From assembly GCA_031362565.1 (NCBI GenBank), contig JANLSU010000051.1, positions 1-64,000 on the forward strand: a DNA stretch of 64,000 nt, in the 5' to 3' direction. The position numbers and the translations under genes are program-made. This DNA is from a bacterium. Its GTDB lineage: Bacteria; Krumholzibacteriota; Krumholzibacteriia; G020349025. The notes below the pieces were generated by a model. That model searched no databases and was not told the origin of the DNA. It worked only from the letters and a program-made list of their open reading frames with translations. This document shows, in pieces, positions 6,746 to 64,000 of this stretch; the stretch's first letter is position 1; each line of letters begins with the position of its first letter.

Positions 6746-9700
6746 TCAGTTCGACCGCACCGGATCTGCCGGCCGGGCCGGCAGCTTCATCGGATGCTCG
6801 CGCATCGCCTTCAGCACTTCCTCGACGCCGCGCTCGAGCTGCGGATCGTGCCCCGCCAGCACCGACTTGGGGTCGTTCTCCACAACAATATCGGGGTCGA
6901 CGCCGTGGCCTTCCACGACCCAGTCGCCGTTCACAGCGTTGGTGCCGAACTCCGGCACGTTGACCGTGCCGCCATCGATGAGGGGGCCACGATTCGTGAT
7001 CCCCACGACACCACCCCACGAGCGCTTGCCGATGAGCGGCCCGAGTTTGGCTTGGCGGAACATGTACGGGAAGATGTCGCCGTCGCTCGACGAGTTCTCG
7101 TCCAGCAGGCAGACCTTGGGGCCGTAGAGCATCGTCCCGGGGTAGGTGTTCGGCTGGGTGTCGTCGCGCGAGAACCGCGTCCCCAGCAGTTCGCGCCGCA
7201 GCCGTTCGATGATCATCTGTGACACGTTGCCGCCGCCGTTACTGCGCACGTCGACAACGAGGGCCTCCTTGTCCACCTGCGGATAGAAGGTCTTGATGAA
7301 CTCGCGAATGCCGTTCCCGCCCATGTCCGGAATATGGATGTAGGCGACCTTGCCACCGGTGAGCTGGTTGACCCGTTCTTTGTTGGTCAGAACGTAGTCC
7401 AGATAGAGAAGATCGGTTTCACTGGTGATCGGCTTGTACGTGACTTGGCGCCCTCCGTCCATGGACGGCTTGGCATTCAGAGTCAGCGTCACCGGCCGGT
7501 CAGCCTTGAAGCGCAGCATGCGGTACGGGCTGTCGTTCCCCCGCAGTTCTTCGCCATCGATGGCCATCACGTAGTCGCCGGTGTGCGCATCGACGCCGAT
7601 TTCCGTCAGCGGCGAACGGTAGCGCTCTTCTTCATTCTGGCCGCGGAAGATCTTGTCGATGCGATACCGGCCGGCCTTCGCATCGAGCGCGAATCGGGCC
7701 CCCGGCAGCGCGACCGGCGGCCGGGGCGGATTCTGAAAATCGCCACCGGCAATGTACGTGTGCGAGTTGTTGAGCTCGCCGATCATTTCGCCGATGACGT
7801 AGTTGAGGTCGCTGCGGTGCGCGACCGAGGGCAGCAGTGCCCGGTACTGCTTCCCGAGCGCCACCCAGTCGTAGCCGTTCATGTTCTTGACGTAGAAAAA
7901 ATCGCGGTACCGGCGCCAGACTTCGTCGAACATCTGCGCCCACTCCTGGGCCGGCACGATGTCGGCCGTCATGCCGTTGGTCGCGACCGTCAACGGCGAA
8001 TCCTTGCCCTTGGGCGAGGCGTCATAGAGTTTGTAAGCGGTGTCGTGCTGCACCAGAACTTTCAGTCCATTGCGCGACACCGAGTAGGCGATCGCATTTT
8101 CGCAGAGCGTCGACTCCTTGCGGGTCTTCAGATCGAAGAGCCGCAGTTCCGGGCGCTTGACCGAATCGCGTCCATAATATCCGGGCCAGCTCTTGAGGTA
8201 TGAGAGCTGTCCGGATTGCACCGCCAGGGACGAGTAGTCGTCGGCCGGCACGGGCACTTGCGCGATGCGGGCAGCGAGGCCGTCGAAATCGATCTTGACC
8301 GCCTTTAGATCGTCGGTCTTGTTGCCGGATTTCGCGTCGCTCTTCGCATCATCCTTCTTCTTGCTATCCTTCTTTTCCTTCGCGTCCGCGGCCCCGGATG
8401 CGGTGGCGTCCTTGCCGGTCTCGGTCGACACCTCGTCGCTCTCGGGCGGGAACGGATGTTTGACATCCTTCCGCAACGCCACCGCGAACAACCCGGTCAT
8501 GCGGTCGGTTGCGAAGTTGAACTCGATGGTCGACAACTGTGGTTCGTACTGCCGGTCCGACAAGAAAAAGAGATAGTTGCCATCCGGGTCCCACGCCGGG
8601 TTCGCGGCGTTGAACAGGACATCGGTGACGCGGTTCAGCTTGCCATCCGCCACGCCCCAGATCCAGACCGACCGGAGACCGTTGTCGTTCGACAGCGTAA
8701 ACGCCAGCCACTGGCCGTCGGACGACCACGTGTAGTCGCGGATTTGGTCGTGCTGATCGTCGGCAACCTCCTGCATTCGCTTGCTGTCCAACGTGAACAC
8801 GAACAGCTTGCCGTCCTTGTCGGCAAAAGCGAGCCGCTTGCCGTCGGGCGACCAGTCGGGCGCAAAGCGCATCAGCGCGCCGTTTGTGGTGAGGCGCTCC
8901 GGCACGCCGGCACCGTCCTGTTTCGCCACGTAGATTTCGTCCTCGCCGGAGGTGTCCGACATCCAGGCGATCCGCTTGCCATCCGGGGACCAACGGGCCC
9001 ATTTCTCATGCGCGGTCGACGTGCGGGTGAGATTGCGGGTCGGGCCTTTTTCGCTTGGCAGTGTGAACACGTCGCCGCGCGCCACGAACACCGCGCGCTC
9101 GCCCTTCGGCGACAAATCGAAGTCTTCGATCAGCTTGTCGACCACGGCGTGCGACGGTCGCATCGCGACACCGTCGTTGGGCACGAAGATCCGCACCGGC
9201 TGCGACGCCCCACTCTTGACGTCGAGAATCTGCAGCTCACCGTTCAGCTCGTACACGATACGGCCTTGCTCGTCGTCGCTTGGCCACCGCACGTCGTAAA
9301 CCTTCTCGTGGGTCACCTGCGTGGCGGTTCTTTGCAGCAGATCATAGAAATACAGATTCAGGTGCCCGTCACGATCCGAGTTGAAGTAGATCCGATCGCC
9401 AATCCACATGGGGTCGCGATCGGTGCGCGGGCTGGCGGCGATTTTTTCGGTGGTCGCGGTCGCCAAGTCGAAAATATAGAGATCCTGCTGCCAGCCGCCT
9501 TGGTAACGCTTCCAGGTGCGGAAGTCGCGCGCCGTCGGGTTGTAGGCCACCTTCGTCTCGTCGGGCGAAAAGTCGGCGGCGCCCGATACGGGCATGGGCA
9601 GCGGTTTGGGCAGGCCGCCGTCGACCGGCACCAAGTACTGCTTCGTTTCGGACTGCACCCAGTTGTCGTACATCGATCGTACGACGACGTTCTTGCCATC

Positions 9701-10084
9701 GCGCGTCCAGCCGTAGACCTGGTTGTCGTAGCCCCAGCGCGGCGCCAGCGGTCCGCGCGCCGGATAGAAGGTCAGCTGGCGCGGTGCGCCACCGGTTGCC
9801 GGCACGACGTAGACCTGTTCGTCGCCGTCGTACTGGCCGGTGAACGCGACCCATTGGCCGTCCGGCGAAAACTTCGGGCACACTTCCAACCCCGGGTGCG
9901 CGGTGAGGCGCGTCGCCGCGCCACCCGCGGTCGGGGCGATCCACAGGTCGCCCGCGTTACAGAACACGATCTTGTCCCCACCAATATCGGGGAAACGCAA
10001 CAGCCGGGTCTGCGCTTCGGCGGATTGTGCCGCAAGCGCTGCACCAGCGACGCACAACGCGGCCAGCGACGGGATGCGGGACAT
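6746..10084 (-). CDS. Tricorn protease homolog (beta-propeller + PDZ + S41-type peptidase)
   Basis: About 1113 aa from the internal ATG 'MSRIPSLAALCVAGAALAAQSAEAQ' (signal peptide). The N-terminus 'LLRFPDIGGDKIVFCNAGDLWIAPTAGG...RLTAHPGLEVCPKFSPDGQWVAF' is typical of tricorn. The length and domain order fit. It contains a K/D-rich low-complexity insert. Confidence 0.75.
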   Translation of the reverse strand: MSRIPSLAALCVAGAALAAQSAEAQTRLLRFPDIGGDKIVFCNAGDLWIAPTAGGAATRLTAHPGLEVCPKFSPDGQWVAFTGQYDGDEQVYVVPATGGAPRQLTFYPARGPLAPRWGYDNQVYGWTRDGKNVVVRSMYDNWVQSETKQYLVPVDGGLPKPLPMPVSGAADFSPDETKVAYNPTARDFRTWKRYQGGWQQDLYIFDLATATTEKIAASPRTDRDPMWIGDRIYFNSDRDGHLNLYFYDLLQRTATQVTHEKVYDVRWPSDDEQGRIVYELNGELQILDVKSGASQPVRIFVPNDGVAMRPSHAVVDKLIEDFDLSPKGERAVFVARGDVFTLPSEKGPTRNLTRTSTAHEKWARWSPDGKRIAWMSDTSGEDEIYVAKQDGAGVPERLTTNGALMRFAPDWSPDGKRLAFADKDGKLFVFTLDSKRMQEVADDQHDQIRDYTWSSDGQWLAFTLSNDNGLRSVWIWGVADGKLNRVTDVLFNAANPAWDPDGNYLFFLSDRQYEPQLSTIEFNFATDRMTGLFAVALRKDVKHPFPPESDEVSTETGKDATASGAADAKEKKDSKKKDDAKSDAKSGNKTDDLKAVKIDFDGLAARIAQVPVPADDYSSLAVQSGQLSYLKSWPGYYGRDSVKRPELRLFDLKTRKESTLCENAIAYSVSRNGLKVLVQHDTAYKLYDASPKGKDSPLTVATNGMTADIVPAQEWAQMFDEVWRRYRDFFYVKNMNGYDWVALGKQYRALLPSVAHRSDLNYVIGEMIGELNNSHTYIAGGDFQNPPRPPVALPGARFALDAKAGRYRIDKIFRGQNEEERYRSPLTEIGVDAHTGDYVMAIDGEELRGNDSPYRMLRFKADRPVTLTLNAKPSMDGGRQVTYKPITSETDLLYLDYVLTNKERVNQLTGGKVAYIHIPDMGGNGIREFIKTFYPQVDKEALVVDVRSNGGGNVSQMIIERLRRELLGTRFSRDDTQPNTYPGTMLYGPKVCLLDENSSSDGDIFPYMFRQAKLGPLIGKRSWGGVVGITNRGPLIDGGTVNVPEFGTNAVNGDWVVEGHGVDPDIVVENDPKSVLAGHDPQLERGVEEVLKAMREHPMKLPARPADPVRSN

Positions 10085-10321
10085 GGTTCTCCAATCGAAC
10101 GTGAGCGGTGGGCCGACAACGTCTGGGGTGGTCGAGGTTCTTTTCCCAGGCGGGCGGCGAGTGTGCGGCGGGTGACGCGGAGCGTCAAGCCCCTCGCGGG
10201 TTTGCCGCGTGCGCCGTGTGACGTGCAGCCCGAATCGCGTCGCCCCCTTCCAAAGGTGGCAACGCATCTGCGATGCTGGGGCGATTCGGCGGCGTTGCAC
10301 CCCAAAGGGGAGTCCGAGGCG

Positions 10322-10972
10322 ATGATCACCAAACGACCACCGGCGCGCGCTTGGTTCGCGGCTGCCGGAATAGCGGTCGTGACCGGCTGCGGCGGCGCCA
10401 CGGTGACGCGCCAAGCGGTGTTACCCGACACCTGGCTCGATCCCACGTATCACACCTCGCCCACCATCGTTCCGGCAGTGGCCATCGCGCCGGCGCCGTT
10501 CACCGGTACGCTTGCCGAACGAGTCGACCAAGGCCTCGAACGCGCCATCATGGACACACCGGGCAGCCAGTTGCGCACCCAGGCCGGCACCGTGCGCCAG
10601 CGCATGAACGCCAACCGGGAGTTCGTCGGCGTGATGGACCGCATCATGAAATTGAAATACGCCCCGAAAGATTTTCCGAGCGCCAACCTGCAGAGCGTTC
10701 TCTCGATGAAGGAATTCGAAGACCTGCGCACGGCGCTCGGCGGGGCCACGATGATGCTCCTGCCGGTCGAATTCACCGTGCAGTCGACGCCCAAGAGCGC
10801 CTCGGGCCAGGCCTTGTACCGCGCCTATTCGCTCGACTCCGGCCGGCTCCTCGCACAGAAGCGCTTCGACCGCCGGGCCACCACCGGCGGCGACGCCGGC
10901 GAGCGCGAGGTCACGGTAGGACTCATCCTGGACATCCAGGACGAATTCTCGAAGCACTTGGTGGCGCAGTAA
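10322..10972 (+). CDS. Lipoprotein of unknown function
   Basis: The real start is inside listed ORF 8456..10972, whose 5' part is antisense to the tricorn gene. 'MITKRPPARAWFAAAGIAVVTGCGG' is a signal peptide plus lipobox. Confidence 0.5.
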   Translation: MITKRPPARAWFAAAGIAVVTGCGGATVTRQAVLPDTWLDPTYHTSPTIVPAVAIAPAPFTGTLAERVDQGLERAIMDTPGSQLRTQAGTVRQRMNANREFVGVMDRIMKLKYAPKDFPSANLQSVLSMKEFEDLRTALGGATMMLLPVEFTVQSTPKSASGQALYRAYSLDSGRLLAQKRFDRRATTGGDAGEREVTVGLILDIQDEFSKHLVAQ

Positions 10973-17706: not shown

Positions 17707-18807
17707 TCACAACACCTCCAAGTCGTCGCGCCCATCGAGCGCCCGCATCCCAGTCACCAGAATGCGTTGCCGGCGCGTCGGCTCCAACTCGGCCGCGAGC
17801 ACGTCGCGCACGAATTGGCCACGCACTGTCGGCTCGACGGCGACGGCCTCGAAGTTGTATCCCGGCCGCAGGCGCGCCGCGCGCACCACGACCGCGTCCA
17901 GTTGCTTCGTCACCGCATCCAGATCGGCCGGCACGAAGTCGACTTGCGGCGCCAGTTCTCCCTGCAGCGTGATGCGGGCGATGCCACCGCGGCCGACGAG
18001 CGAGGCGGCGACCCGGCCGCACACCTCTTGGCGGTTGGTGCAACCCGTCACATCGACTTCGACATCGTGAACGACGGACGCCGCGACCGCTTTCTGCTCG
18101 CGCATGACCGTGCCGTCGGGCCGTATGTGCGCGATGACGGCGCCACGAGTGCCGGTCTCACCGAATGCCAATGGATCGGGGTTGCCGGGATAGGTGTGTT
18201 GCGGTGCAAGCCGCGGCAGGTGGTAGTGCCCAAGAAACGCGTGATCGATGCCGGCGTTGCGAATGTCTTCCGCCGCAAACGGCGCGTGCGGCACCTTGGT
18301 GTCGCCCTGGTCGCGGAGCGACGAACGCTCCGAGCCGTGAAAGAGCGCCAGGTGGGCACCGGCCCGGTCGACGACGAAGCCGTCCAGGAAACCCGGCGTA
18401 CCGGCCGGCCGCACATGCGCCGCGCCCCAGAGCGTGAGCCCGCCGGTCAGCTCGACCGGCATCAGGCGTGGTTCGGTAAAGATATGGACATTGTCGGACC
18501 AGGCGACGCGGCGGTACAGGCTTTCGGCGCCGTACCAGTCATGGTTGCCGGGCGCGACGAAGACTCGGATCGGATGCAGTTGGGCGAAGGCGGCGCGCAG
18601 AAAAGCGGCCGTGTCGGGCGAGAAGCGGTCGTGCTCGTACAGATCGCCGCCGCAGAACACCGCATCGACGCGTTCGGCCTGCGCCAACGCGATCAGGCGC
18701 GCCAGGGTATGCCGCAACGCCTCACGGCGGGCGCGAGCGGTGCGGGCGCTGCCCAGCGACGCGAACCCGGTGTCCAAATGCAAATCGGCAAAATGCAGAA
18801 GCTTCAA
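17707..18807 (-). CDS. SbcD/YhaO-like metallophosphoesterase nuclease
   Basis: MPP motifs 'LKLLHFADLHLD', 'GGDLYEHDR' and 'VAPGNHD' are present. The TTG start is preceded by GGGAGGA at an 8-nt spacing. The listed ORF has a long Arg-rich N-terminal extension, which was discarded. Confidence 0.65.
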   Translation of the reverse strand: MKLLHFADLHLDTGFASLGSARTARARREALRHTLARLIALAQAERVDAVFCGGDLYEHDRFSPDTAAFLRAAFAQLHPIRVFVAPGNHDWYGAESLYRRVAWSDNVHIFTEPRLMPVELTGGLTLWGAAHVRPAGTPGFLDGFVVDRAGAHLALFHGSERSSLRDQGDTKVPHAPFAAEDIRNAGIDHAFLGHYHLPRLAPQHTYPGNPDPLAFGETGTRGAVIAHIRPDGTVMREQKAVAASVVHDVEVDVTGCTNRQEVCGRVAASLVGRGGIARITLQGELAPQVDFVPADLDAVTKQLDAVVVRAARLRPGYNFEAVAVEPTVRGQFVRDVLAAELEPTRRQRILVTGMRALDGRDDLEVL

Positions 18808-19271
18808 GCGCCCTATCCTCCCCACCCGCGCCGCCGCCGCCTCGGGGAAGGCCGGCGCGCCGCAGCGCCACAGTACCGAGGACGCGCGCGGAAAGGAACC
18901 CCTGGTTTGAGGCCTGGCTCGGGGCGCAGTCGGCCCGGCCATTTCGCGGTTTTGCCTCATAGGGGGCAAGCGCTCACGCGGTAGAAGGTCGAGACTCACG
19001 GTCTCGCCGCTGGTTCCGAATCGCGATCGACGCGTGCAATGGGGATTTTCACCCAGCAGAAAGCGCTTTCGCGCCTCACTGCCGTCGATGCAGGTTGTCG
19101 GAACCGCACTCGATCGCGTACCTTTTTGACTCCCCAGCGAGCGATCTGGAAGTAAACGCTTGTCCGCAACGGTCGACACGATCGCCGGCGTAACTCTGCA
19201 CGCCGGCCGTTCGGCTTTTGCGGAAATCTGTTTTCTGGGATCGAAGAGGATCTTTTTTTCGGAGGCTTGGA

Positions 19272-19997
19272 ATGAAGCGACGGTTTTCGATGCATGTGGC
19301 CGCTGCGTTCGCAGTCGTGGCACTGGGAGCGGCAGCGGGTTGGGCGGCAGACGAAGACATGGAGACGCCGGACGGACCGCAGATCGAGACGACCTGCGAC
19401 GTGTCCGGCTACAAGACGGAATCGATCAAGTATGACCCCGCAGTTGCCATCCCGGACGGCGACACGGGCGGCGTCAAACTGGGTCCACTGCAATTCGCAG
19501 ATGACGGCAAGCGGATCTCCGACACGGTGCTGGAGATTATCGCCAGCCACACCAAGATCGGTGATCTCACGGTTGAACTCGGCTACGACCTGACCTGCAA
19601 CGGCTCGATCGACTACAAGTCGCGCGTCGTGTGCCGCCCGCGTGGGACACAAACCACGACTCCCGCACCGTGCGGCACCGGCACCGGTGGCGGTTGTACG
19701 GGCGACCTGAGCTGCGGCCGCATGTACTCGTTCCGGGACGCCGGCGCCAGCGAGTTGGCGGTCGGAGCGTGCGCTGCGACGCTCGCGACCGGCTGCTACA
19801 AGCCACCGACGACGGGCGGCACGCCGTTGTCCGTCTTCAAGGACCTTCCCAAGGGCGGCTGCTGGTATCTGACGATCGTCGACCACGTGACCCCCAACAA
19901 GGGCTCCGTGTGTGAATGGTCCGTGCATCTTTTGAACCATGTTGCAGTCGGCGTCGAGGCCGCGACATGGGCCAAGTACAAGGTGCTGTACCGGTAG
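19272..19997 (+). CDS. Secreted protein with proprotein-convertase P-domain-like fold and conserved 'LYR' C-terminal tail
   Basis: An RBS GGAGG lies 7 nt before the ATG. The signal peptide is 'MKRRFSMHVAAAFAVVALGAAAGWAAD'. The stretch 'IGDLTVELGYDLTCNG...GGCWYLTIVDHVTPNKGSVCEWSVHL' resembles a P-domain (PF01483-like). The C-terminus is 'VGVEAATWAKYKVLYR'. Confidence 0.55.
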   Translation: MKRRFSMHVAAAFAVVALGAAAGWAADEDMETPDGPQIETTCDVSGYKTESIKYDPAVAIPDGDTGGVKLGPLQFADDGKRISDTVLEIIASHTKIGDLTVELGYDLTCNGSIDYKSRVVCRPRGTQTTTPAPCGTGTGGGCTGDLSCGRMYSFRDAGASELAVGACAATLATGCYKPPTTGGTPLSVFKDLPKGGCWYLTIVDHVTPNKGSVCEWSVHLLNHVAVGVEAATWAKYKVLYR

Positions 19998-20084
19998 ATC
20001 CGCAACGGTAGGTGCGGACGGCGGCGCCCCTGACGCCGCCGTCCGCTTTCTGTTTCCCACCCGGCAGCGGCAGCGGCGCGAGTC

Positions 20085-21635
20085 TCACCGCGTCCGCAGC
20101 CACAGGATCTGTCCGCCTTGCACGGTTTCGTCGCTCGGCGCGATGCGCAGGCTGTGCGCTTGCACGTCGCAAAGCCAGCTCCCGCGTCCCAAGATGGCTT
20201 CGGCGTCAACGATGCCGCTCGACTCCCACAGACCGGGGCGGTTGTCCTTCGCTTCGTCGCGATTCGCAGGGTCGGCGGCGAGCGCGTGGCGCACGGCAGG
20301 CGTGCGGTTGATTTCGGCGACGCGGCGCAGTTTGCGGTGGGTGATGTCGTAGATCCAGATCGATGCGTCGCGCTGGAGCCCGAGGGCGCGCAGATCGTGC
20401 CCCGGGTCTTCCTGGATCGCCAACTCACCGTGCCGGTTCACCTCGACATTGTCGGGGGCCACGAAACCGTCGCTACCATCCAGCAACAGCGTCAGCATGC
20501 CGCCGGCCATCGGATCCGTCGGGCTGAAATGCAGCCGGTAGATGCGGCCGCGTTCGTTGCAGCCCGGCGGCTCGTTGGCGCTGGGCAGTTTGCCGGTCGT
20601 CGCGAAGTAAAGATTGCCCGGCGCCACCGGATCGCAGGCACCGTCCTCGATCCGCACGAAGCCGAAGGCCGCCGCGGCCTTTGCGGCAGCATCGAGTTCC
20701 AAATCCGTGCCGTCCCAGGGCACCGGCACCCAGTGCACGGGCAGCGAGTTGCCGCGCGCGTGGAAGGTCGCTTCCGAAGCGCGTCCGGCGTCATCGGATG
20801 CGAGTGCGAAGAGTGTGCCGCCCCGCAAACCGTTCGCGGTCAGCGGATCCGCGTCGCCGGGCTGTTTGGTACCCAAGTGCATGTAGAGTTGTGAGTGCAG
20901 GCCGTCACCATCGCTCGGCCCATCTTCGAGACCGAAGGTCACGGTCTGGGCGCCCGTGAATGGCGCCACGACAACATTCTCCCACTCCCCGCGGCCCATG
21001 CGTGGCACCGCGTATGCGCGCCCGTCGACGAGCGCCCACGCTTCGCCGCCGCGGCCGTCGAAATTGTTCTTGCCGGCCGATTCCTCGCCATTCAGGAAGA
21101 TGCGCCGGTCGAACCCGACGCGTTCATCGGCGAGAAACGCCGAACACAGTTTGGCGATCCCGCCGGTCACCGGATCGACACGCACCGGTGGCTCTCCGAC
21201 ATACACGCTCTCGATGGCCCACCGTCCGGAGACGACGCGTGGGCGCGCGCCGGATCCGATCGCGATGCGGAGTTCGGTCACCCGCGCGCCCGCCGGGAGC
21301 GGTCCGGCGGCATGGCCCGCGTCCTTCGCCCATTCGTGGTTCACCAAGAGAATCGCCGTGTCGGGCCATGCCGCGTACAAACCCAGACCATCCGGCACAC
21401 CCAAGAAGCGAAATGTCCGGCTTGGGGCGCCGGTCTGCGGCAGCGTCTGTCCGACGGTGACGAGGGCTCGAATACGGGCGCGCGACTGGACCGGTTTCAA
21501 GTAGGCCGGTGCATTGGCGTACGGATCCCGAGCCGGCGCCGCGGCGCCCGCGATGGCCGGCGTGCCCGCACAGGCGGCACCGAACAACAGCCATGCAAGA
21601 GCATGCGGCGGAACTCGTCTCACGTGTCGTCGCAA
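20085..21635 (-). CDS. Secreted PhoX/DUF839-like beta-propeller protein (putative phosphatase)
   Basis: A signal peptide 'RRVPPHALAWLLFGAACAGTPAIAGAAA' is present. The 'LVNHE' motif and Gly/Asp-rich propeller repeats are present. The start is uncertain: a TTG with GGGGGGA upstream was chosen. Confidence 0.4.
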   Translation of the reverse strand: MRRHVRRVPPHALAWLLFGAACAGTPAIAGAAAPARDPYANAPAYLKPVQSRARIRALVTVGQTLPQTGAPSRTFRFLGVPDGLGLYAAWPDTAILLVNHEWAKDAGHAAGPLPAGARVTELRIAIGSGARPRVVSGRWAIESVYVGEPPVRVDPVTGGIAKLCSAFLADERVGFDRRIFLNGEESAGKNNFDGRGGEAWALVDGRAYAVPRMGRGEWENVVVAPFTGAQTVTFGLEDGPSDGDGLHSQLYMHLGTKQPGDADPLTANGLRGGTLFALASDDAGRASEATFHARGNSLPVHWVPVPWDGTDLELDAAAKAAAAFGFVRIEDGACDPVAPGNLYFATTGKLPSANEPPGCNERGRIYRLHFSPTDPMAGGMLTLLLDGSDGFVAPDNVEVNRHGELAIQEDPGHDLRALGLQRDASIWIYDITHRKLRRVAEINRTPAVRHALAADPANRDEAKDNRPGLWESSGIVDAEAILGRGSWLCDVQAHSLRIAPSDETVQGGQILWLRTR

Positions 21636-21762
21636 ACGTATCCCCCCGGTGATGGGAGTGGAGCCTCGTTCCGGCGGCGGCAAACGGCGCCCATGCTATC
21701 AGAGTGTCTTCACACCTGGAATGCGTAGCGCCGGCCCGAAACGGGCGCTATAGTGCGCCACC

Positions 21763-27661: not shown

Positions 27662-29776
27662 TCAGCGCGCTTCGTCCAAGAGCCGGCAACCCTCGAAGAG
27701 CATTGAATCGGTGGGCTCGGACACGTTGTCCGGGGGAAACGATTTCACGGGCGAGGTTGCGAATGCTCCCTGATCGCGCCAGCGGATGATGCGGTAGATG
27801 GCGTCGGCACCCTGCGCCGGCCCGCATGCCGCGTGCACGATCTGGCCGTGGCGCATGAAGAAGCTGGCCGACTCGCCGCTCGCGCTCTGCAATTGAACTC
27901 GCACCGTACGTTGGCTGCCGGAGAGCGCTTGCACGAGATCGATGAAGGGCAGTTCCTGCAGGGTGCCGCGGAAGCCGCGTTCGGAGCGCCCACCCGGGCG
28001 GCCACGCATTTCGAGTGCCTTGCCGATGCGCGTCACGAGCACGTTGTAGTTGAACGGCGGCACGTACGCATCGTCGAAGCCGGCATCGAGCAGCTCCATG
28101 ACGAGCGCCGGACCGGCTTGCGCCGAGAAGGCGTAGGCGAGCGCCGAGGTGTTGTCCTTGACGAACCGGCACAGCTCGGTGGCGCGCGCCGCGTGGCGCT
28201 CGTGATTGACGAGCACCACGGCCGGTGTGATGCGGCTCACGAGCCGGCGTGCTTCATCGATGTCGTCGACTTCGACAACGCGATAGCCGCCGTAACGCAG
28301 GTGCACCCCGAGCTGCTTTGCGACTTCGTTTCCTGAACCGACCAGCAAGACCGGATCGAGGCTCGCGGCGGTGTTGGAATCGGCACCCTGCTCGAGCAAT
28401 CGCAGGTATGTGTCGACGACTTCCGTCGCGGCGAGCCGCCCGACTTGGCGCCGCAATTCGATTTTGACGGCCTCGAGCGACACTTCCGCGCTGCGGAACG
28501 CCGCGAATCGATACCACACGAGCGCCAGGATCTGCGCCGCGAGCGAGACCTTGTGATTGCCGTCGCGCCGTACGTGCGCCACGTCGGTGAGGTACGCGAA
28601 CGATTCGAGACAGGCTTCGACATTCCACGGGAACTGTAAGGCTTGCGCGATCTCGAGCGAGCGTGCGAAGTCGGCGAAAGCGAAGGCGCTGGCATGCGTC
28701 ACCTCGCCGACGGCGGGACGCGGTGCCGGACCCCGCCCGGCGCGCGCGGCGTCCACTTCCTCCGCCGCCGGAACGAGCAAGTGGGCCGCGATCTGTAAAC
28801 CGTCGATCGCCAGGCGGCGGAATCCGAGCGCCGTGGCGAGATTGCGCAGGTCCTCGCAAACGTGGGCGTACGACGGCCGGTACGCGGAGCCGGATGCCGT
28901 GGCGCGCAGGTCCGCCATCTGCTGCAGGGATCGAATCAACGCCCCTGCGACGTCGCGGTACGGGGCTGGGTTTTCCAACAACGAGCCGCTGACGCTCGAA
29001 AACATGGACATCTCCACCCGTGGCGGCGCAAAGACGCCGGCGCGCCCCCATTCCTCGAACTGCGCCTCCATGTCCTTGGCGACCAACACGTGGTTGTAGT
29101 GGCCCTGCTGCAATGCGGTGGCGATTTGCTGCGGATCCGACATGAGGTCGAGTTCGACACCCTCACGCTCGAAGATGGCGACCAGGAAATTGCGCAAGAA
29201 CGCCGTGCGGCTCACCATCAAGACGCGCGGCGAAGGTTGCGCCGGTCCCGGCTCGGCAGGGCGCGCGGCGGCCTTGTTCGCCTCGTCGTCGAAGATCGCC
29301 GGCAACTCGATGATTTGGTCCACGAACAGCTCGTGGCCACGCGCATGGTAGTGCTCGGCGATCGCGCTCCGCACCAGCGCGTCGACCGCGATGTGCGGCT
29401 TGATGTCGGTACAGGCGCCTTTGCGGCGCGCGTGGTGCAGGGCGCCGGCGTTGCTCGGATCGGCCATCGCGACGTGCAGCGTTTGCGTGCCGGCGTCCCA
29501 TGCGAAGGGCAGCATCTGGTATTCGTCCACGACGTCGACCGGCAGGCGTTTCGTGACGTCCTCGGGAATCCGCCGGCCGTCGAGACACACACCCGGCACG
29601 CCGAACTGTTCGCCGAGGGCGCGCACCAGTTGTTCTTCGGTCACGAATCGGTAATACAGAAAATGCGACCCAAGGCGCCCGCCGCGCAGTTTCTGGCGGT
29701 CGAGCGCTCGTTGGACTTGGTCGGGGTTGAGGATGCCGTAGCGCTGAAGAATTTCAGCCAGTTTTTCGTGCTTCAT
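27662..29776 (-). CDS. Multidomain regulator: T2SSE_N/MshEN-like N-terminus, two degenerate receiver-like domains, DUF4388 C-terminal domain
   Basis: The N-terminus is 'MKHEKLAEILQRYGILNPDQVQRALDRQ...RLGSHFLYYRFVTEEQLVRALGEQ'. The second half fits the MshEN c-di-GMP motif RLGxx(L/V/I)(L/V/I)xxG(L/V/I)(L/V/I)xxxxLxxxLxxQ. The receiver-like blocks are 'RVLMVSRTAF...HVLVAKDM' and 'VLLVGSGNEV...AVVLVNHE'. The C-terminal 'LQELPFIDLVQALSGSQRTVRV...IYRIIRWRDGAF' is DUF4388-like. Its start overlaps the pilT stop (ATGA). Confidence 0.55.
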   Translation of the reverse strand: MKHEKLAEILQRYGILNPDQVQRALDRQKLRGGRLGSHFLYYRFVTEEQLVRALGEQFGVPGVCLDGRRIPEDVTKRLPVDVVDEYQMLPFAWDAGTQTLHVAMADPSNAGALHHARRKGACTDIKPHIAVDALVRSAIAEHYHARGHELFVDQIIELPAIFDDEANKAAARPAEPGPAQPSPRVLMVSRTAFLRNFLVAIFEREGVELDLMSDPQQIATALQQGHYNHVLVAKDMEAQFEEWGRAGVFAPPRVEMSMFSSVSGSLLENPAPYRDVAGALIRSLQQMADLRATASGSAYRPSYAHVCEDLRNLATALGFRRLAIDGLQIAAHLLVPAAEEVDAARAGRGPAPRPAVGEVTHASAFAFADFARSLEIAQALQFPWNVEACLESFAYLTDVAHVRRDGNHKVSLAAQILALVWYRFAAFRSAEVSLEAVKIELRRQVGRLAATEVVDTYLRLLEQGADSNTAASLDPVLLVGSGNEVAKQLGVHLRYGGYRVVEVDDIDEARRLVSRITPAVVLVNHERHAARATELCRFVKDNTSALAYAFSAQAGPALVMELLDAGFDDAYVPPFNYNVLVTRIGKALEMRGRPGGRSERGFRGTLQELPFIDLVQALSGSQRTVRVQLQSASGESASFFMRHGQIVHAACGPAQGADAIYRIIRWRDQGAFATSPVKSFPPDNVSEPTDSMLFEGCRLLDEAR

Positions 29777-30867: not shown

Positions 30868-31120
30868 GCAAGCCGCCTGGACGAAGGGGTGACCTTGGAG
30901 ACGTGGCACCTCGGGTCCCACGCCGACTCCGGGGACGCAGTCTCGTTGCTTTGCACGGAGCGCGCCGAAGCGTATGAATCTGGAGAAGTCGCTGAATGCG
31001 GTCCTCGACCGCCTCCACCGAGGAGTCGGGGCATCATCCGCCCGGCTCGAGCGGACGTACTGGAAGCAAATGCGGCGATTCCTTTGCAGACAGAAGCCGG
31101 CCTCGAGTCGTTGTCCCGGC

Positions 31121-33233: not shown

Positions 33234-35048
33234 TTACTGGGTCACCAACACCTTGTGGCTCTGCAGTGCCTGGCCGTCCACCGAGAGACGTGCGAAGTAC
33301 ATGCCGCCCGCAACCCGCGAACCGGTATCGTCGCGGCCATCCCAGCGAGTGGCAAAGGTCCCAGGCGCTGCATCTTGGTTGACCAGCGACCGCACCCGGC
33401 GTCCACGTGCATCGAACAATTCGAGCGCCACGTGGCCTTGGCGCGGCACCGTGAAGAGCAGGCGGCTCGCCGCACCGGCATCCGGGATCACGTCGAGCTT
33501 CGACTGCGGTGCCGCAGCCGCGGTGCCCGCCGTACCGTGGCTGGAGTCGACGTCGGCGTCGTCATCGTCGGCGGCAGTCGATCCATCGTCCTGCAACGTG
33601 ATCACGGCCTGGTTTTGATTGCTGGTGCCTTCGTGGCTATGATCCAGCGGGTTGTGCGGCAGCGCGACGTACGGGAAATAGGGTAGGAACGGCACGTCGT
33701 TGTAGTCGACGCCGTCACCCAACTGCCGGTTGGGCTTGATGTCGAATCCGGGCACGAGCACGCCGGCCACGACGCGCAATTCGATGTCGACGATGTCGTC
33801 GCCCAAACGGCGGCCGTTCGGGAAGCCTGCCAAGTCGCCCTTTAGGACAGCGAAACGATTCGGCTTCCGCGCCGGCGGGATGAGCATGTTGAGACGCACC
33901 ATTTCGCAAGCGCCACCGTTCTCGTTCAGGCCCGGTACACCCTTCAAGAACACCGCCACCAGATCGTTGCGCGGCGTCGGGGGCACGCTGATGCCATAGA
34001 TGGCGTGGAGCAGGCCCGGCAACTCCGGATTGGTGACGTAGTTCAGAAACGCCCCGTCGCCAGTCGGCTTGGTGGCATTGAACTTGTCTTTGTCCTGCAG
34101 CGGAATCACGACTTCATTCACGAGTGGCATGCCGAGCCGCGACACTTGCAGTTCGGGGCCGCTGATGCTGGCCGTACCGTCGGCGTTGATGATGCGGGTC
34201 GAGTTGCGCTCGGTCGAGTCGTAGATGCCGAGCACCGAAGTGCCGGCCTTCGGCGCCTGGCCGTCCCGCGTCAGGCGCTCGAACGGCACCTGTAGCACGA
34301 TCGCCATAGCGTTGTAACCGGCAAGCCCGTCGATCCCACGGCCTTTGTTCCCCGGCAGGCGGCGGATGGTGAGCAGGTCGAAGATGCCGGCCAAATCCAC
34401 GAAGAACGGATCGTCACGCGGCCCGCAAAATACCTTGGTGCCGTCCGAGAGTGTTTGCACCGCTGCCCGCGCCAGGCTCGCGTAGTCCGGCATCGACACC
34501 GGGCCGACGTAGTTCGGCGCCACCGGCAGGCCGGTCGCGAGTTCGTGGTCGACGCCATCTTCGACGCGCGTCACCGAGTAGGTCTGGCGCACGTTCAAGT
34601 CCGGGTCGTTGAGCGAGGTCACAACGCCGGTGTTGTACAGGAACGTGTTGCCGTTCTGGCGCGTCGTCGTGAAATTGAATTCATAGCGCAGGTGGTCGAG
34701 ACAGTCGCCGACGTTGTCGATGTTGACGTAGTAGTGGGCTTCGTCGTCGAACACATAGAAATTGGGACCGCCGTTGGGCTCGAGCAAGGGGATCCACAGG
34801 CCCACGAACGTCACCGCATGCGGCGCATCGGGGCTCACGAACGCGTAGAGGTCGGTGTCGTCGGCCAGGCGATCCTTCGCCGTGCCCGGCGCTTCACTGT
34901 GGCTGGACGCGATAGCGCCCCGCACGAGAACGCTGGCGCTGAGCGCAATGCCCAGGGCTAGCAGTACAAAGAGATGCAGGCCGCGCTTCAGCGCGACCGC
35001 CGCAACGCGACCACCGGTGCGTTGCAAAGGAGATGACGCGTGCTTCAT
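33234..35048 (-). CDS. DUF4331-domain secreted protein with Por/T9SS-type C-terminal sorting domain
   Basis: An RBS GGAGG lies 9 nt before the ATG. The signal peptide is 'LHLFVLLALGIALSASVL'. The mature N-terminus 'SSHSEAP...DDTDLYAF' is the DUF4331 signature. The C-terminus 'ELFDARGRRVRSLVN...WDGRDDTGSRVAGGMYFARLSVDGQALQSHKVLVTQ' matches the T9SS CTD pattern. Confidence 0.6.
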   Translation of the reverse strand: MKHASSPLQRTGGRVAAVALKRGLHLFVLLALGIALSASVLVRGAIASSHSEAPGTAKDRLADDTDLYAFVSPDAPHAVTFVGLWIPLLEPNGGPNFYVFDDEAHYYVNIDNVGDCLDHLRYEFNFTTTRQNGNTFLYNTGVVTSLNDPDLNVRQTYSVTRVEDGVDHELATGLPVAPNYVGPVSMPDYASLARAAVQTLSDGTKVFCGPRDDPFFVDLAGIFDLLTIRRLPGNKGRGIDGLAGYNAMAIVLQVPFERLTRDGQAPKAGTSVLGIYDSTERNSTRIINADGTASISGPELQVSRLGMPLVNEVVIPLQDKDKFNATKPTGDGAFLNYVTNPELPGLLHAIYGISVPPTPRNDLVAVFLKGVPGLNENGGACEMVRLNMLIPPARKPNRFAVLKGDLAGFPNGRRLGDDIVDIELRVVAGVLVPGFDIKPNRQLGDGVDYNDVPFLPYFPYVALPHNPLDHSHEGTSNQNQAVITLQDDGSTAADDDDADVDSSHGTAGTAAAAPQSKLDVIPDAGAASRLLFTVPRQGHVALELFDARGRRVRSLVNQDAAPGTFATRWDGRDDTGSRVAGGMYFARLSVDGQALQSHKVLVTQ

Positions 35049-35246
35049 ACCCAAGGGCCTCCGTAGTTCGCGAGCGCAGAGGGCGCGCGCGAGGGTGCTT
35101 CGAGCGATCGACGGCGCGCAGGGGTCAGCGCCGGGTGTCGCCGTATCTACGGAGCCCGATGCGTCCCGGATGTTGCCGATCATGCCGCAGCCGGCCGTGG
35201 GGCAAGTCCCCCACTCCCGCCGCACGATCTCGTCGAGCCCGGGGCA

Positions 35247-46905: not shown

Positions 46906-47682
46906 ATGAGAAAGACAGCCATCGCGCTCCTCCTTTGCTGCATCGCAGCACTCGTGGCGGCTCCGGCCATGGCCACGAACCTGTTGGCCGATGCTTTCGC
47001 CTACGCTGACGGCGGTCTGGTGCCGAACGGCGGTTGGGCGAACTTCAGCGGCACAGCCACTGACATTCAGGTTGTCTCGGGTCGCGCCGTCGGCGTGGGT
47101 CCGAACGCCAACGACGACCACGTGTTCTTCGCGGTGCAACCGACGACCTCGACGACCTTTGCGTGCCTCACGGTGCGGATCCCGGCGGTCGCGGGCGCGC
47201 CGAAGGCGATCTACTTCTTCGGCATGAAGGATGGCGGCACGGCGGCTTTCGTGTCGCGCGTGTACGTGCTACCGATCACCGGCGGGTTCACGTTCGGCCT
47301 GTCGCATTCCAGCACCAGCGCCACGGTTGGCGTTGTGCCGTGGTCGGCCTCGACGCTTTTGTACGATCACGACTACAACATCGTCATCAACTACGATCCA
47401 GTCGCGAAATCGTCGACCATGTGGGTCGACCCGGTGAACCAGGCGAGCACGAGTGTCTCGATCACCAACGCGGCAATCGCGGCGCTCGCCGTTCAGACCG
47501 TGTTTCTCCGCCAGAGCGGCACGGCAGCCACGTTGCCAGCGTCGCCGTCCTACGCCGGCACTGTCGACTGGGGCTTCTCGGTGGACAACGTCGGAGTCGG
47601 CACCACGTTCACCGACGCCTGCTCCGGCACCGTCGCCGTCGAAAGGGCCAACTGGAGCAGCATGAAGACGCTGTACCGGTAA
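46906..47682 (+). CDS. Secreted beta-rich protein of unknown function with conserved 'LYR' C-terminal tail
   Basis: The signal peptide is 'MRKTAIALLLCCIAALVAAPAMA'. The C-terminus is 'VAVERANWSSMKTLYR'. Confidence 0.5.
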   Translation: MRKTAIALLLCCIAALVAAPAMATNLLADAFAYADGGLVPNGGWANFSGTATDIQVVSGRAVGVGPNANDDHVFFAVQPTTSTTFACLTVRIPAVAGAPKAIYFFGMKDGGTAAFVSRVYVLPITGGFTFGLSHSSTSATVGVVPWSASTLLYDHDYNIVINYDPVAKSSTMWVDPVNQASTSVSITNAAIAALAVQTVFLRQSGTAATLPASPSYAGTVDWGFSVDNVGVGTTFTDACSGTVAVERANWSSMKTLYR

Positions 47683-48396: not shown

Positions 48397-48439
48397 AGCA
48401 GCGCGCGGTTTCCGCCGCAACCTTGGAAAGGAGGCGCAC

Positions 48440-61164: not shown

Positions 61165-61191
61165 CAGCGCTCGAGCGGAAGGATTTCCAAG

Positions 61192-61590
<399 letters not shown>

Positions 61591-61614: not shown

Positions 61615-62523
61615 TCAACGGTAGAGGCTCTTGACGCCGCCCCACGCGTTGTTTTCGATGCTGATCGTCGGCACCCACACGTCGGTAATCGGCGCCGCGG
61701 TCACCGCGTTCGCGAACGGCGCCAGGCCGAGCGCGTCGCAAATCGTCCGCACCAAGTTGTAGTGATTGACGGTACCCGGCGACACGAAATTTGGAATCAC
61801 CATTGGACCCGCGAACACCGTCAATATGCGGTTGAACGACGCACTGTCGTCTTCGTCCCACGTCAAGATCACACAGCCATTCGGCCCGGCTGCGGCGACC
61901 ATCGCCGGAATGTTGTTGGACAGCCACGTATCACCCACCGCCAGCGCGCAGTCGTGCGTGTTGTTGCAATTGTTCGGGATCACGAACACCAAGTTCGGCA
62001 GCGTGTTGTTGGCGATGTCCAGCGCCAAGTCGGAGTACGGCCGTTCGTTCAGATGATTCAAGTTGTTGAAGTTCGTCCACGGGTCATGCTTGCGCGTGTA
62101 GAGCATGCCATCGTTGGTGCAAAGAACCGAACCGGCGGCCGACAAATTCTCGCTGTACGCGCGCCAGGTGAGGCCGGCGGCTTCGCAAGCGTGCCCGAGG
62201 TTCTCGGCGCTGAAGGGCGAGCCGAATGCCGGACATTGGTTGCTGTTGACTCCGAGAAGACTGCCTGCCCACAGGGCGATGTAGTTCGGTTGCGACGGGT
62301 GAGTGATGGCGAAAGAGTTGGAGCAATGGCTGTTGGCGGCGATGAGACTGGCGGTGTACGGCAGAACCCGCACTTGGTTGTAGCTCTTGTTTTCCATGAC
62401 CACGACGATGACGTGATCGAGATGCGGCACCGAGGCCGCCTGGGCTCGGCCCGCGGACAACAACGCCGCAAGAGCCACGATGAGCGCGGCGCCTTTCGAC
62501 TGGGTGGGCGACACGACGTTCAC
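61615..62523 (-). CDS. Secreted phosphoesterase-family protein (PLC/AcpA-type) with conserved 'LYR' C-terminal tail
   Basis: After the GTG start, the signal peptide is 'ALIVALAALLSAGRAQA'. 'HVIVVVMENKSYNQV' is the phosphoesterase (PF04185-type) motif. The C-terminus is 'ISIENNAWGGVKSLYR'. Confidence 0.6.
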   Translation of the reverse strand: MNVVSPTQSKGAALIVALAALLSAGRAQAASVPHLDHVIVVVMENKSYNQVRVLPYTASLIAANSHCSNSFAITHPSQPNYIALWAGSLLGVNSNQCPAFGSPFSAENLGHACEAAGLTWRAYSENLSAAGSVLCTNDGMLYTRKHDPWTNFNNLNHLNERPYSDLALDIANNTLPNLVFVIPNNCNNTHDCALAVGDTWLSNNIPAMVAAAGPNGCVILTWDEDDSASFNRILTVFAGPMVIPNFVSPGTVNHYNLVRTICDALGLAPFANAVTAAPITDVWVPTISIENNAWGGVKSLYR

Positions 62524-62833
62524 GCGGTCTCCTCTCGAGATGCAAGCACCGGTGCGGACCTTCTAGAGTTCGTCTGGCATCTGCCGTCAGGCCCTTGATT
62601 CTATCCGACCGGGCGCTGGTTGTCCCTGGTCGCGAAACCTGGAACGGCGGCGTGCCCGGGGGCCCCGTGGCCCGAGGAACCCCCGTCCAGCTGCCCTTCC
62701 GCGTTGTCGATCCACGGGCCAGCGTGCTATTCTGTGCCATTCGAACCGCGTCGCTCCGCCGGGCGTCCGGGAGTTGCATCCGTTGCTCAGCACCAAGTCC
62801 GCCCATTCGCTTCGCCGCCTGCGAAGCAAACCG

Positions 62834-64000
62834 ATGATGGCCGCGATTTTCGCGGCCTTGGTTGTGTTTTGTGCCCTGCCGGTGGCAGCCGAGACCCTGC
62901 GGCATCACTATAGGTTCGATGCCGCGCGCCTCGTCGTGCAATCGGGCGTCGCGGGCGCTTCGGTCGCGATCCGGCCCGCCGGCCCGGGCATCGAATCGCT
63001 GCCCGGCACGCTGCCCGCCACCTGGGATGCGGGCGAGCCCGAACTGCCTTACGAAGTCGTCACGTTCGTGGTGCCGCGCGGTTCGCGAGTTCTCGAAGTG
63101 CGCGCCGAAGCCGGCGCCACGATCACTGTCGCCGAAGGGCTCGAATTCGCGGCGGCGGCGGCCGTTCTGAGTGAGACCGGCGTGGCGCTGGCCCCCAAGG
63201 CCGCGGTGACTGCCGCGCCAAGCAGCCTCTATCCTGCCGTCGCGGCGCAGGCGGCCGGCGGCGGTGCGTTGCACGGCTACCAGCTCGCTTCGGTGCGTGT
63301 GTACCCGGTGCGCTGGGACGCGGCGCAAAAACGCCTGCAGGTGACCACCGACCTCGACATCGAAGTGACGATCGCGCCGGGCGGCGCGTTGCCGTTGCAG
63401 CGCGAGCGGTACCGGCCGGAAATCGAAAACCTGGCGCGCCACACGCTCGAGCACCTCGTGGTGAATCCGGCGGCGCTCGACACCTACGACCGGCGGATCG
63501 GCGTCCGCGTCGAAAAACAGTCCGCCGGCTTCCGGCCCACCGACGCGCCGAGCCTCGAGGGCAGCGACGTCGACTACGTCATCATTACGAGCAACGCGCT
63601 GGCGCCGGCCTGGCAGGTCCTCGCCGACTGGAAGACCCACCGTGGCGTGCCGACCGTCATTCGCACCACGGAATGGATTCAGGCCCACTATCGCCACGGC
63701 AGTGATCTCGCGGAGACCGTCCGCAATTTCATCGAAGACGCCTACGCCAAGTGGGGCGTGCGCTATGTCCTGCTGGCCGGCGACTCCGACATTATTCCAG
63801 CCCGCTACGGCTTCTCCGGCTTCGGCGAACCGAGCGAACAAAAAATTCCGACCGACATGTACTTCGCCTGTCTGGATGGCAACTGGAATTTCGACGGGGA
63901 CGCATTGTTCGGCGAAGCCGTGGTCGACTTCGGCGATCCGGGCGACGACACCGACCTCTACGCCGAGGTCTTCGTCGGCCGCGTGCCGCTCAGCCTGACA
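62834..64000 (+). CDS. Peptidase family C25 (gingipain-like) secreted cysteine peptidase, 5' partial (runs off window end)
   Basis: This frame is open with no stop to the window end, so it is not in the ORF track. I translated it by hand. The signal peptide is 'MMAAIFAALVVFCALPVAAE'. 'DYVIITSNALAPAWQVLADWKTHRGVPTVIRTTEWI...IRNFIEDAYAKWGVRYVLLAGDSDIIPARY...DMYFACLDGNWNFDGD...VGRVP' matches the C25 catalytic-domain pattern, also found in T9SS PorU. Confidence 0.55.
   Translation, partial: MMAAIFAALVVFCALPVAAETLRHHYRFDAARLVVQSGVAGASVAIRPAGPGIESLPGTLPATWDAGEPELPYEVVTFVVPRGSRVLEVRAEAGATITVAEGLEFAAAAAVLSETGVALAPKAAVTAAPSSLYPAVAAQAAGGGALHGYQLASVRVYPVRWDAAQKRLQVTTDLDIEVTIAPGGALPLQRERYRPEIENLARHTLEHLVVNPAALDTYDRRIGVRVEKQSAGFRPTDAPSLEGSDVDYVIITSNALAPAWQVLADWKTHRGVPTVIRTTEWIQAHYRHGSDLAETVRNFIEDAYAKWGVRYVLLAGDSDIIPARYGFSGFGEPSEQKIPTDMYFACLDGNWNFDGDALFGEAVVDFGDPGDDTDLYAEVFVGRVPLSLT

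Follow-up and report, generated by a model that had tools for sequence, protein, structure and literature searches.

Why do three unrelated secreted proteins, encoded within 64 kb of one another, end in nearly the same residues? The question is raised by positions 1 to 64,000 of contig JANLSU010000051.1 (GenBank assembly GCA_031362565.1), from a bacterium of the phylum Krumholzibacteriota; this whole 64-kb stretch is referred to here as the window. An initial annotation, made from the sequence alone, had pointed to a near-identical tail at the extreme C-terminus of three proteins encoded there and had proposed that it may mark the substrates of a sorting, processing or secretion step. We find that the tail belongs to a strictly terminal tag of about 20 residues, which is carried by diverse exported proteins from many loci, lies outside the passenger fold and is set apart from type IX secretion system (T9SS) cargo. 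Such a tag probably serves as a label, so far undescribed, that addresses proteins to the cell envelope or anchors them there.

Three unrelated exported proteins with one C-terminal tail

Protein 1 (241 aa; 19272..19997, + strand) consists of a Sec-type signal peptide (MKRRFSMHVAAAFAVVALGAAAGWA), a stand-alone jelly roll resembling a P domain, and the tag, its final 20 residues NHVAVGVEAATWAKYKVLYR being encoded at 19935..19994 (+). In protein 2 (258 aa; 46906..47682, +) a signal peptide is followed by a concanavalin/legume-lectin-like beta sandwich and by the tag CSGTVAVERANWSSMKTLYR (final 20 residues, 47620..47679, +), which includes a tag-proximal Cys. Protein 3 (302 aa; 61615..62523, - strand) joins a signal peptide and a phosphoesterase of the AcpA/phospholipase C family to the final 20 residues WVPTISIENNAWGGVKSLYR (61618..61677, -). 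Translated, the three ends read ...VGVEAATWAKYKVLYR, ...VAVERANWSSMKTLYR and ...ISIENNAWGGVKSLYR*, respectively, and a signal-peptide-like N-terminus is found on each protein (3/3), as had been claimed. The interval first singled out, 19947-19997, corresponds to the final 16 residues of protein 1 and its stop codon. The shared terminus is thus real; the length of 16 residues has to be extended to about 20, often starting with Cys. The three tails fit the extended pattern as V-x-V-E...W...K-x-L-Y-R and are degenerate forms of the sharper ...[ST]TWGx[IVL]Kx[LI]YR.

A six-frame scan of the whole 64 kb with the relaxed motif W...[KR].[LIVM][YFW][RK] returned only three occurrences, each directly 5′ of a stop codon, and W...K.LYR followed by a stop ends exactly three open reading frames (ORFs) in the window; translation and scan together confirm the near-identical tails. 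Given the amino-acid composition of the window, the probability that a C-terminus carries W...K.LYR by chance is 5.3e-8, or ~3e-6 expected cases among ~60 genes. In pairwise BLAST comparisons of the three proteins, the last 16-24 residues are the sole notable similarity and the passengers are unrelated. The tail DNA of the three genes has 26-31 of 48 bases in common, with different synonymous codons and three different stop codons. Because of this low DNA identity and the differing codons and stops, we conclude that the tail is conserved at the protein level and is not a DNA repeat. G+C-rich, terminator-like hairpins with a T run are seen 3′ of genes 1 and 2, which therefore have real ends at these positions.

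The claim of three unrelated passengers also stands, with one of them now better described. The passenger of protein 3 matches the Phosphoesterase family (PF04185, 1.5e-26), and an identical protein 3 is present on a Logan contig of ~4 kb. Protein 1 has only a weak match in Pfam, to PF01483 (P_proprotein); when its fold is compared with the PDB, P domains score best, namely those of Aeromonas ASP, furin and Kex2. Protein 2, previously recorded as unknown and beta-rich, could be assigned to no family in Pfam or NCBIfam; its Foldseek matches are legume lectins and a phage carbohydrate-binding module (CBM), consistent with a lectin-like sandwich.

Distribution and terminal position of the tail

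To follow the tail beyond the window, one genome per species from 185,579 species was scanned for the DNA pattern ACN TGG GGN NNN NTN AAR NNN NTN TAY MGN TRR, for which about 35 chance matches over the whole collection were calculated. The scan gave at least 125 matches in at least 120 loci. Each of the 125 matches listed has a true stop codon (TAA, TAG or TGA) behind it; TGG, equally permitted by the pattern, does not occur there. In a six-frame translation of 892 kb, the core WG.hK.hYR (h, hydrophobic) lies 0-2 residues from a stop in 140 of 140 cases and is never internal.

Taxa were defined by the record titles of the submitters and counted among the at least 120 loci listed. These comprise ~45 loci from Candidatus Eisenbacteria, six from Latescibacterota, five from Krumholzibacteriota, six labelled “uncultured Fibrobacteraceae,” five from Gemmatimonadota, one from Zixibacteria, and ~45 from unclassified metagenome-assembled genomes (MAGs). 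A few of the loci are single, short and probably mis-binned contigs. Neither Bacteroidota records nor cultured organisms are found among them.

The families of the window proteins give a similar picture. Protein 2 has 270 homologues at E<=1e-3, and in almost all of the 120 listed (56-100% identical to the query) a “DAC...TPT” linker leads into a terminal [ST]TWGx[VIL]Kx[LI]YR; their named sources are MAGs of Candidatus Eisenbacteria and Gemmatimonadales. For protein 1, 21 full-length homologues (~240 aa) and one truncated homologue were found, and the full-length members all have signal peptides and retain the tail or a slightly degenerate form of it. In both families the tail persists down to about 40% overall identity.

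A position-blind search was made with a 20-position profile, built from the window proteins and their homologues only, against 1.84 billion representative proteins. It recovered 496 clusters at E<=1e-3, and in 147 of the best 150 matches the motif lies 1-2 residues from the C-terminus. The 84 long matches form 25 passenger clusters. In a calibration, a profile of this kind picked up only ~6% of independent true tails at E<=1e-3, so the true number of clusters at 50% identity is probably in the thousands, by rough extrapolation. As to local density, the 64-kb window has three tails, and 828 kb of the loci contain 23 more that had not been selected for; extrapolated, these densities suggest that a genome has roughly a hundred carriers or more. 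A 42-aa tail profile run against a word-indexed database of 5.8 billion proteins gave 24 candidates and three short matches and was uninformative. Taken together, the motif search of related genomes shows the tail on many diverse, exported carriers and not just on three paralogs: no fewer than 57 passenger clusters, unrelated to one another, occur in the at least 120 loci, alongside the 496 clusters of the profile search.

The same DNA pattern was also run against IMG/VR, where only nine matches were obtained (L001-L009), eight of them genuine ORFs ending in the tail. These contigs could be prophage, host-derived regions or mis-called viral contigs from the carrier phyla.

Anatomy of the tag

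Position-specific counts give the wide consensus (Cys)-[PA]-[TV]-[PA]-[TVA]-[ERK]-x-[ST]-T-W-G-x-[IVL]-K-[AS]-[LIM]-Y-R-COOH. The tag has three parts: a frequent Cys, a short, extended linker rich in Pro, Thr and Val, and a nearly invariant T-W-G-x-[IVL]-K-[AS]-[LIM]-Y-R-COOH core. Counted from the C-terminus, the linker runs from [PA] (-17), [TV] (-16), [PA] (-15) and [TVA] (-14) through [ERK] (-13) and any residue (-12) to [ST] (-11), and the core consists of T (-10), W (-9), G (-8), any residue (-7), [IVL] (-6), K (-5), [AS] (-4), [LIM] (-3), Y (-2) and R (-1). The DNA search pattern had set T, W, G, K, Y and R in advance, but unbiased family alignments confirm them. One of these alignments (A2; 57-79% identity of its members to the window protein) shows no variation at W, K and Y and almost none at R.

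The Cys is found at -20 to -18, i.e. 9-11 residues upstream of the Trp, in 63% of the proteins. Of the 57 independent passenger clusters 31 have it, where the background is ~2-4% per position. In protein 2 it is Cys239 (47620-47622 of the window). The spacing to the nearest upstream Cys varies, and a fixed local disulfide loop was rejected on that ground. Given the enrichment over background and the variable spacing of the partner, the tag-proximal Cys probably closes the passenger through a disulfide. The last 20 residues contain no hydrophobic stretch. Over the last 10 residues the hydrophobic moment peaks at 110-120 degrees (0.56, compared with 0.35 +/- 0.17 for shuffled sequences at 100 degrees).

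Exceptions to the strict terminal position are few. One or two residues follow YR in ~4% of tails. A lipoprotein (P0147) bears four tandem copies of the tail at its C-terminus, and three further proteins (P0158, P0175 and P0270) consist of two duplicated modules, each with a tail-like motif behind it. Internal copies are thus found where a module was duplicated. The three duplicated proteins belong to the same lipoprotein family as P0147, and their internal tail-like motif runs into a Pro-rich linker. Separately, an FG-GAP-type repeat protein of 1347 aa (P0263) contains nine internal “NNWGQVKILTASD” repeats that resemble the tail core; as a tail this motif was rejected, being judged a chance resemblance within a propeller repeat.

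The core also varies by lineage. The Gly after the Trp (-8) has been lost in the closest relatives of the window organism in two unrelated families (6/9 and 3/4 members), and in 1/110 and 5/17 of the more distant members of the two families. The degenerate tails of the window lineage comprise P0002-P0007, P0125-P0127 and the three window tails. In the protein 1 family of the window sublineage, the hydrophobic residue at -6 is additionally replaced by Thr or Tyr. Such parallel loss in unrelated families suggests a lineage-specific drift of whatever reads the tag, as would be expected if a single reader co-evolved with all of the tails.

Export and diversity of the carriers

A simple heuristic finds a signal-peptide-like N-terminus in 99 of 109 complete tail ORFs. 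In a comparison with other ORFs of similar size from the same loci, 93% of the tail ORFs pass, versus 43% of the controls. By this heuristic, the carriers are exported proteins. Their median length is 243 aa. A lipobox is present in at most three of 104 carriers, and a lipoprotein signal was rejected as an explanation for this reason.

After removal of the tail, the 104 proteins fall into 57 passenger clusters, of which 41 are singletons. The Pfam domains they carry include LTD (7), beta-helix (4), NHL, CHRD, CBM20, plastocyanin-like, phosphoesterase, phytase-like and other domains of extracellular type. Some passengers have their best NCBIfam matches among families that elsewhere carry PEP-CTERM or GlyGly-CTERM, such as ScyF (9.7e-55), PepA and ExeM, and beta-helix passengers end either in the tail or in a C-terminal domain (CTD) of the T9SS type. 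Because of this exchange of signals on related passengers, the tag can be said, from domain architecture, to occupy the same niche as known C-terminal tags.

Predicted conformation of the tail

The AlphaFold models of proteins 1 and 2 have a predicted local distance difference test (pLDDT) score of 82.5 and 89.5, respectively, and in both the tail lies outside the modelled passenger fold, at a pLDDT of about 54. In protein 1, residues 225-240 form a low-confidence hairpin after the confident domain (block pLDDT 73, 59, 53). In protein 2, residues 241-249 are coil (pLDDT <50 at 244-247) and residues 250-257 a low-confidence helix. A test for an amphipathic helix therefore gives a helix in one model and a hairpin in the other, both at low confidence. 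The models do not fix a conformation, which would be expected of a peptide that folds on binding. The possibility that the tail is the last strand of the P-domain or lectin fold was rejected, since AlphaFold places it outside both folds with low confidence, and no Pfam or NCBIfam model of a larger domain extends over it; the tail is thus not the terminal strand of a known domain. Checked against each of the refuting conditions named in the initial annotation, the idea of a sorting tag was not refuted.

Comparison with known C-terminal signals

No model of Pfam (2025 copy) or NCBIfam release 20 covers the tail in the 104 tail proteins or the three window proteins. PDB sequences compared with the tail profile gave noise only (at most 13 bits), and nothing relevant was found in the literature searched on the motif, on CTERM-style names or on secretion in Eisenbacteria and other phyla of the Fibrobacteres–Chlorobi–Bacteroidetes (FCB) group. 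The view that the tail matches no known signal is upheld for these models, PDB chains and papers, and so are the specific exclusions made at the outset, as follows.

Like the tag, the T9SS CTD (type A, TIGR04183/PF18962; FlgD-Ig-like) is a C-terminal signal on unrelated Sec-exported cargo. The T9SS is known in the FCB group (PMC12398890), and the two signals are found in the same superphylum and in the same genomes, both ending in hydrophobic residues followed by a basic residue. However, the CTD is cleaved by PorU and is a folded beta sandwich of 70-100 aa (PMC4804311), whereas the tag is a conserved region of ~20 residues that is unstructured in the models. The tag shows no sequence similarity to the CTD and is not found in Bacteroidota among the loci listed. 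Its carriers have a median length of 243 aa, compared with ~658 aa for CTD proteins from the same loci. PF18962, PF13860 and TIGR04183 match none of the 104 tail proteins or the three window proteins, while true CTD proteins were detected normally.

The PEP-CTERM/exosortase, LPXTG/sortase, GlyGly-CTERM/rhombosortase and MYXO-CTERM tags are, as here, short modular tags on many unrelated secreted proteins within one lineage, and several tag passengers have homologues among the PEP-CTERM or GlyGly-CTERM proteins of other phyla. Such tags are built from a motif, a transmembrane (TM) helix and a cluster of basic residues, and it is a membrane transpeptidase that processes them, whereas the tag described here has no TM helix, hydrophobic segment or basic tail, ends in ...YR and matches no NCBIfam CTERM model. 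The beta-signal of outer-membrane proteins, an aromatic end residue (usually Phe) on a beta-barrel, can also be set aside, as the terminal residue is Arg and not aromatic and the passengers are soluble folds. A type I secretion signal, which is poorly conserved, often goes with RTX repeats and comes on proteins lacking a Sec signal peptide, does not fit either: Sec-type signal peptides are present on ~90% of the carriers, conservation of the motif is sharp, and no RTX (HemolysinCabind) family is among those matched.

Further afield, in eukaryotes, the peroxisomal targeting signal PTS1 (-SKL) and the KDEL/HDEL signal are very short, strict C-terminal peptides on folded, unrelated cargo that are read by a soluble or a membrane receptor, and the logic proposed for the tag is alike. 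This is an analogy only, as the domain of life, the compartment and the motif differ and the receptor of the tag is putative. The anchors of PBP5/DacA and the membrane-targeting sequence (MTS) of MinD resemble the tag in being short and terminal, with basic and aromatic residues and, possibly in the tag too, helical amphipathicity, but they are weakly conserved and family-specific, while the tag is nearly invariant across dozens of families. Lpp, with its ...YRK end, is an envelope protein with a Tyr-Arg-containing motif at the extreme C-terminus and a conserved Lys, as in the tag. In Lpp, a single family, the reactive Lys is terminal, whereas in the tag Arg is last in nearly all cases, the Lys lies at -5 and the carriers are diverse.

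The tag therefore lacks the defining features of the T9SS CTD, of TM-containing tags, of the outer-membrane beta-signal, of type I secretion and of Lpp-type attachment. What was found is a terminal tag on unrelated passengers with predicted signal peptides, restricted among the loci listed to certain lineages and, by extrapolation, present in many copies per genome. By these comparisons we propose it as a new form of C-terminal tag on secreted proteins, with no detectable relation to described families.

Genomic context

The window is ordinary chromosome, encoding among others aconitase, formate-tetrahydrofolate ligase, Dus, an Lhr helicase and ZnuABC. It also harbors classical T9SS cargo, a DUF4331 protein with a FlgD-Ig/T9SS-type CTD (33234..35225, -; PF14224 and PF13860; ending ...GGMYFARLSVDGQALQSHKVLVTQ), which does not bear the tag. 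This protein groups with 21 other CTD-ending proteins from tail loci. The 22 T9SS-type CTD proteins in tail loci (L011-L125) have a median length of ~658 aa and end in [KR]-h-h-h-h-[RK] (...SGVYFVRL...K-h-h-h-h-R); one PF18962 match occurs in L096. The tag coexists with such cargo as a distinct class of smaller proteins, and because both occur in the same genomes, the tag proteins are regarded as a class apart.

Divergent from protein 3 lies a gene for a C25-family cysteine peptidase (62774..64000, +; PF01364, 1.9e-25), which is cut by the window end. The 882-aa version of this peptidase on L130 (3-2648, -) scores 79.6 bits against the PorU model NF033707, for which the cutoff is 420, a score that makes the peptidase no more than a distant relative of the T9SS sortase PorU. 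The C25 peptidase was rejected as a sortase for the tag, as the adjacency is found in one of 120 loci and the homologue there (L080) itself ends in a normal CTD. Recurrent neighbours of tail genes are T9SS-CTD proteins, PD40/TPR/kinase repeat proteins, amidohydrolases and DUF5916, none of them specific to the tag.

The gene of protein 1 is flanked by those of a Metallophos protein (17707-19323, -) and a PhoX-like protein (20085-21683, -), and that of protein 3 is adjoined by a hybrid histidine kinase and response regulator (57886-61590). The phosphatase-rich neighbourhood (17707-21683; 61615-62523) may be a phosphate-scavenging regulon. Immediately downstream of protein 2 are an extracytoplasmic function (ECF) sigma factor and an RskA-type anti-sigma factor (47833-49282, +). 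A MshEN/DUF4388 protein followed by a T2SSE-family secretion/pilus ATPase (27662-31299, -) is part of a type II/IV-like system. Finally, the window encodes a tricorn-like S41 protease of 1222 aa (6746-10414, -) in which PD40 propellers and Tricorn_C1 are combined with PDZ and S41 peptidase domains. This is a type of enzyme that reads C-termini; any tie to the tag is pure speculation.

Interpretation and alternative explanations

We lean, with moderate confidence, towards reading the tag as a modular C-terminal sorting or anchoring signal on Sec-exported proteins, carried on a flexible linker and read in trans by a shared putative partner. The cargo would cross the inner membrane via Sec and fold in the periplasm, where the flexible linker would present the terminal peptide. 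This peptide, having no fixed structure of its own, would be bound by one shared, trans-acting reader, which would direct or tether the cargo to a destination in the envelope, most likely the outer membrane or the cell surface. The logic would be closer to terminal-peptide sorting of the PTS1 or KDEL type than to TM-anchored tags of the sortase type. In favour of this reading are the terminal position, the variety of exported cargo, the niche shared with known tags, the place of the tail outside the modelled folds, its strong conservation, the constraint common to unrelated families and its abundance. A more specific version of this proposal is that Eisenbacteria and related candidate phyla of the FCB group possess an undescribed envelope-sorting or surface-tethering pathway, PTS1/KDEL-like, that reads an unstructured, TM-less TWGxhKxhYR-COOH of ~10 residues on an estimated few percent of the proteome, through a reader unrelated to sortases, exosortases and the T9SS CTD pathway. 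This version we put forward as tentative, and in its full form it is rather less than probable.

Several points weigh against this reading. All-against-all clustering of 706 ORFs from the 120 loci and the window found no conserved non-tail partner, and the C25 adjacency of the window is not conserved (1/120 loci). All carriers come from uncultured MAGs, and the taxon range is based on the at least 120 loci listed and on the MAG labels of submitters. A free carboxylate exactly at the Arg is not an absolute requirement, because ~4% of tails are extended and a few proteins have internal or tandem copies. In addition, the parallel loss of Gly could reflect relaxed constraint instead of co-evolution.

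One alternative is a self-sufficient envelope-binding peptide. Forming a short amphipathic helix or hairpin, with Trp/Tyr at the interface and Lys/Arg as its basic residues, the tail itself would attach non-covalently to a membrane leaflet, lipopolysaccharide or peptidoglycan and would tether periplasmic or surface proteins without dedicated sorting machinery; parallels would be PBP5 or MinD, each with an amphipathic helix at its C-terminus, or a single repeat of the cell-wall-binding kind. The peak in hydrophobic moment at 110-120 degrees (0.56 versus 0.35 +/- 0.17 for shuffles at 100 degrees) and a composition of W, Y, K and R suit an interfacial peptide. The four tandem copies of P0147 and the internal copies of the two-module proteins resemble avidity-type binding modules, one or two extra terminal residues are tolerated, and a linked machinery gene was not found in 120 loci. 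We nevertheless regard this explanation as unlikely, as phyla and passenger families hardly differ at T, W, G, K, Y and R, while lipid-binding helices are usually poorly conserved in sequence; ten residues make a short stretch to hold stably to a membrane, the two AlphaFold models do not agree on a helix, and the parallel lineage-specific drift suits a protein partner better. The tail could alternatively be a minimal or accessory T9SS signal that mimics the last strand of the folded CTD and is read by the translocon, a PorV-type shuttle or a PorU-like C25 sortase. Many T9SS-type/FlgD-Ig CTD proteins are found in the same loci and in the window, including the PF18962 match in L096, a PorU-related C25 peptidase adjoins protein 3, and beta-helix passengers occur with either signal. 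The labelled carrier phyla are mostly candidate phyla conventionally placed in the FCB group (PMC12398890), and the K-[AS]-h-Y-R-COOH end of the tag can be set beside the [KR]-h-h-h-h-[RK]-COOH end of the CTD. That likeness is weak, however, and the CTD is a folded sandwich of 70-100 aa (PMC4804311) as opposed to ~20 disordered residues. PF18962 and TIGR04183 match no tail protein, the C25 adjacency is not conserved and the L080 homologue has a classical CTD itself, and no Bacteroidota are among the 120 loci listed, though most known T9SSs are from that phylum. A T9SS signal is therefore distinctly improbable.

Two further proposals assign the tail to an enzyme, and both seem to us very improbable. 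The tail could serve as a recognition tag for a periplasmic, PDZ-containing processing protease (S41/tricorn-like), acting in maturation or turnover and not in sorting. It is strictly C-terminal, S41 peptidases recognise C-termini through their PDZ domains, as is established for Prc/Tsp and CtpA, and the window encodes the tricorn-like S41 protease with its PDZ domain. Yet PDZ domains of the S41 type prefer hydrophobic terminal residues, which the terminal Arg does not suit, and S41/tricorn proteases are far more widespread than the tag and show no linkage to it across loci; it would also be hard to rationalise why genes from dozens of families, by estimate a few percent of the total, should be hard-wired with a signal for degradation or processing. 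The other proposal is covalent anchoring through the invariant Lys, by an isopeptide bond to a partner protein or by an L,D-transpeptidase link to peptidoglycan as in E. coli Lpp. The C-terminus of E. coli Lpp is Tyr-Arg-Lys, which the Lys at -5 and the terminal Tyr-Arg recall, and a few tails end in ...RYK; but Lpp reacts through its terminal Lys, whereas in the tag the Lys is internal and Arg is terminal, and we see no evidence for a catcher domain or a linked transpeptidase. That the tail has no function and reflects chance, paralog ancestry or a DNA-level repeat can be practically dismissed. Only the small number of window cases (three) speaks for it, while ~3e-6 cases are expected by chance, and independent cases occur in more than 100 loci and hundreds of protein clusters, always terminal. 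Paralogy was rejected given the 57 passenger clusters and the unrelated window passengers, and a DNA repeat given the 26-31 of 48 shared bases and the three different stop codons.

Implications

The LPXTG, PEP-CTERM and T9SS CTD tags each led to a dedicated sorting machine, and they are now routine for the prediction of surface proteomes. The tag described here appears to mark a large and diverse exported set with lectin-like, carbohydrate-binding, phosphatase, beta-helix and nuclease-associated domains, and its carriers belong to abundant uncultured phyla of soil, sediment and groundwater whose cell biology is barely charted. The 20-position profile already recovers the class and is usable in annotation pipelines for the secretome and surfaceome of the carrier phyla; it could also drive phylogenetic profiling for the putative reader. 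As the tag has neither a TM segment nor a folded domain, its reader should work differently from known systems, and should that reader turn out to be a new machine, the tag would be new in kind.

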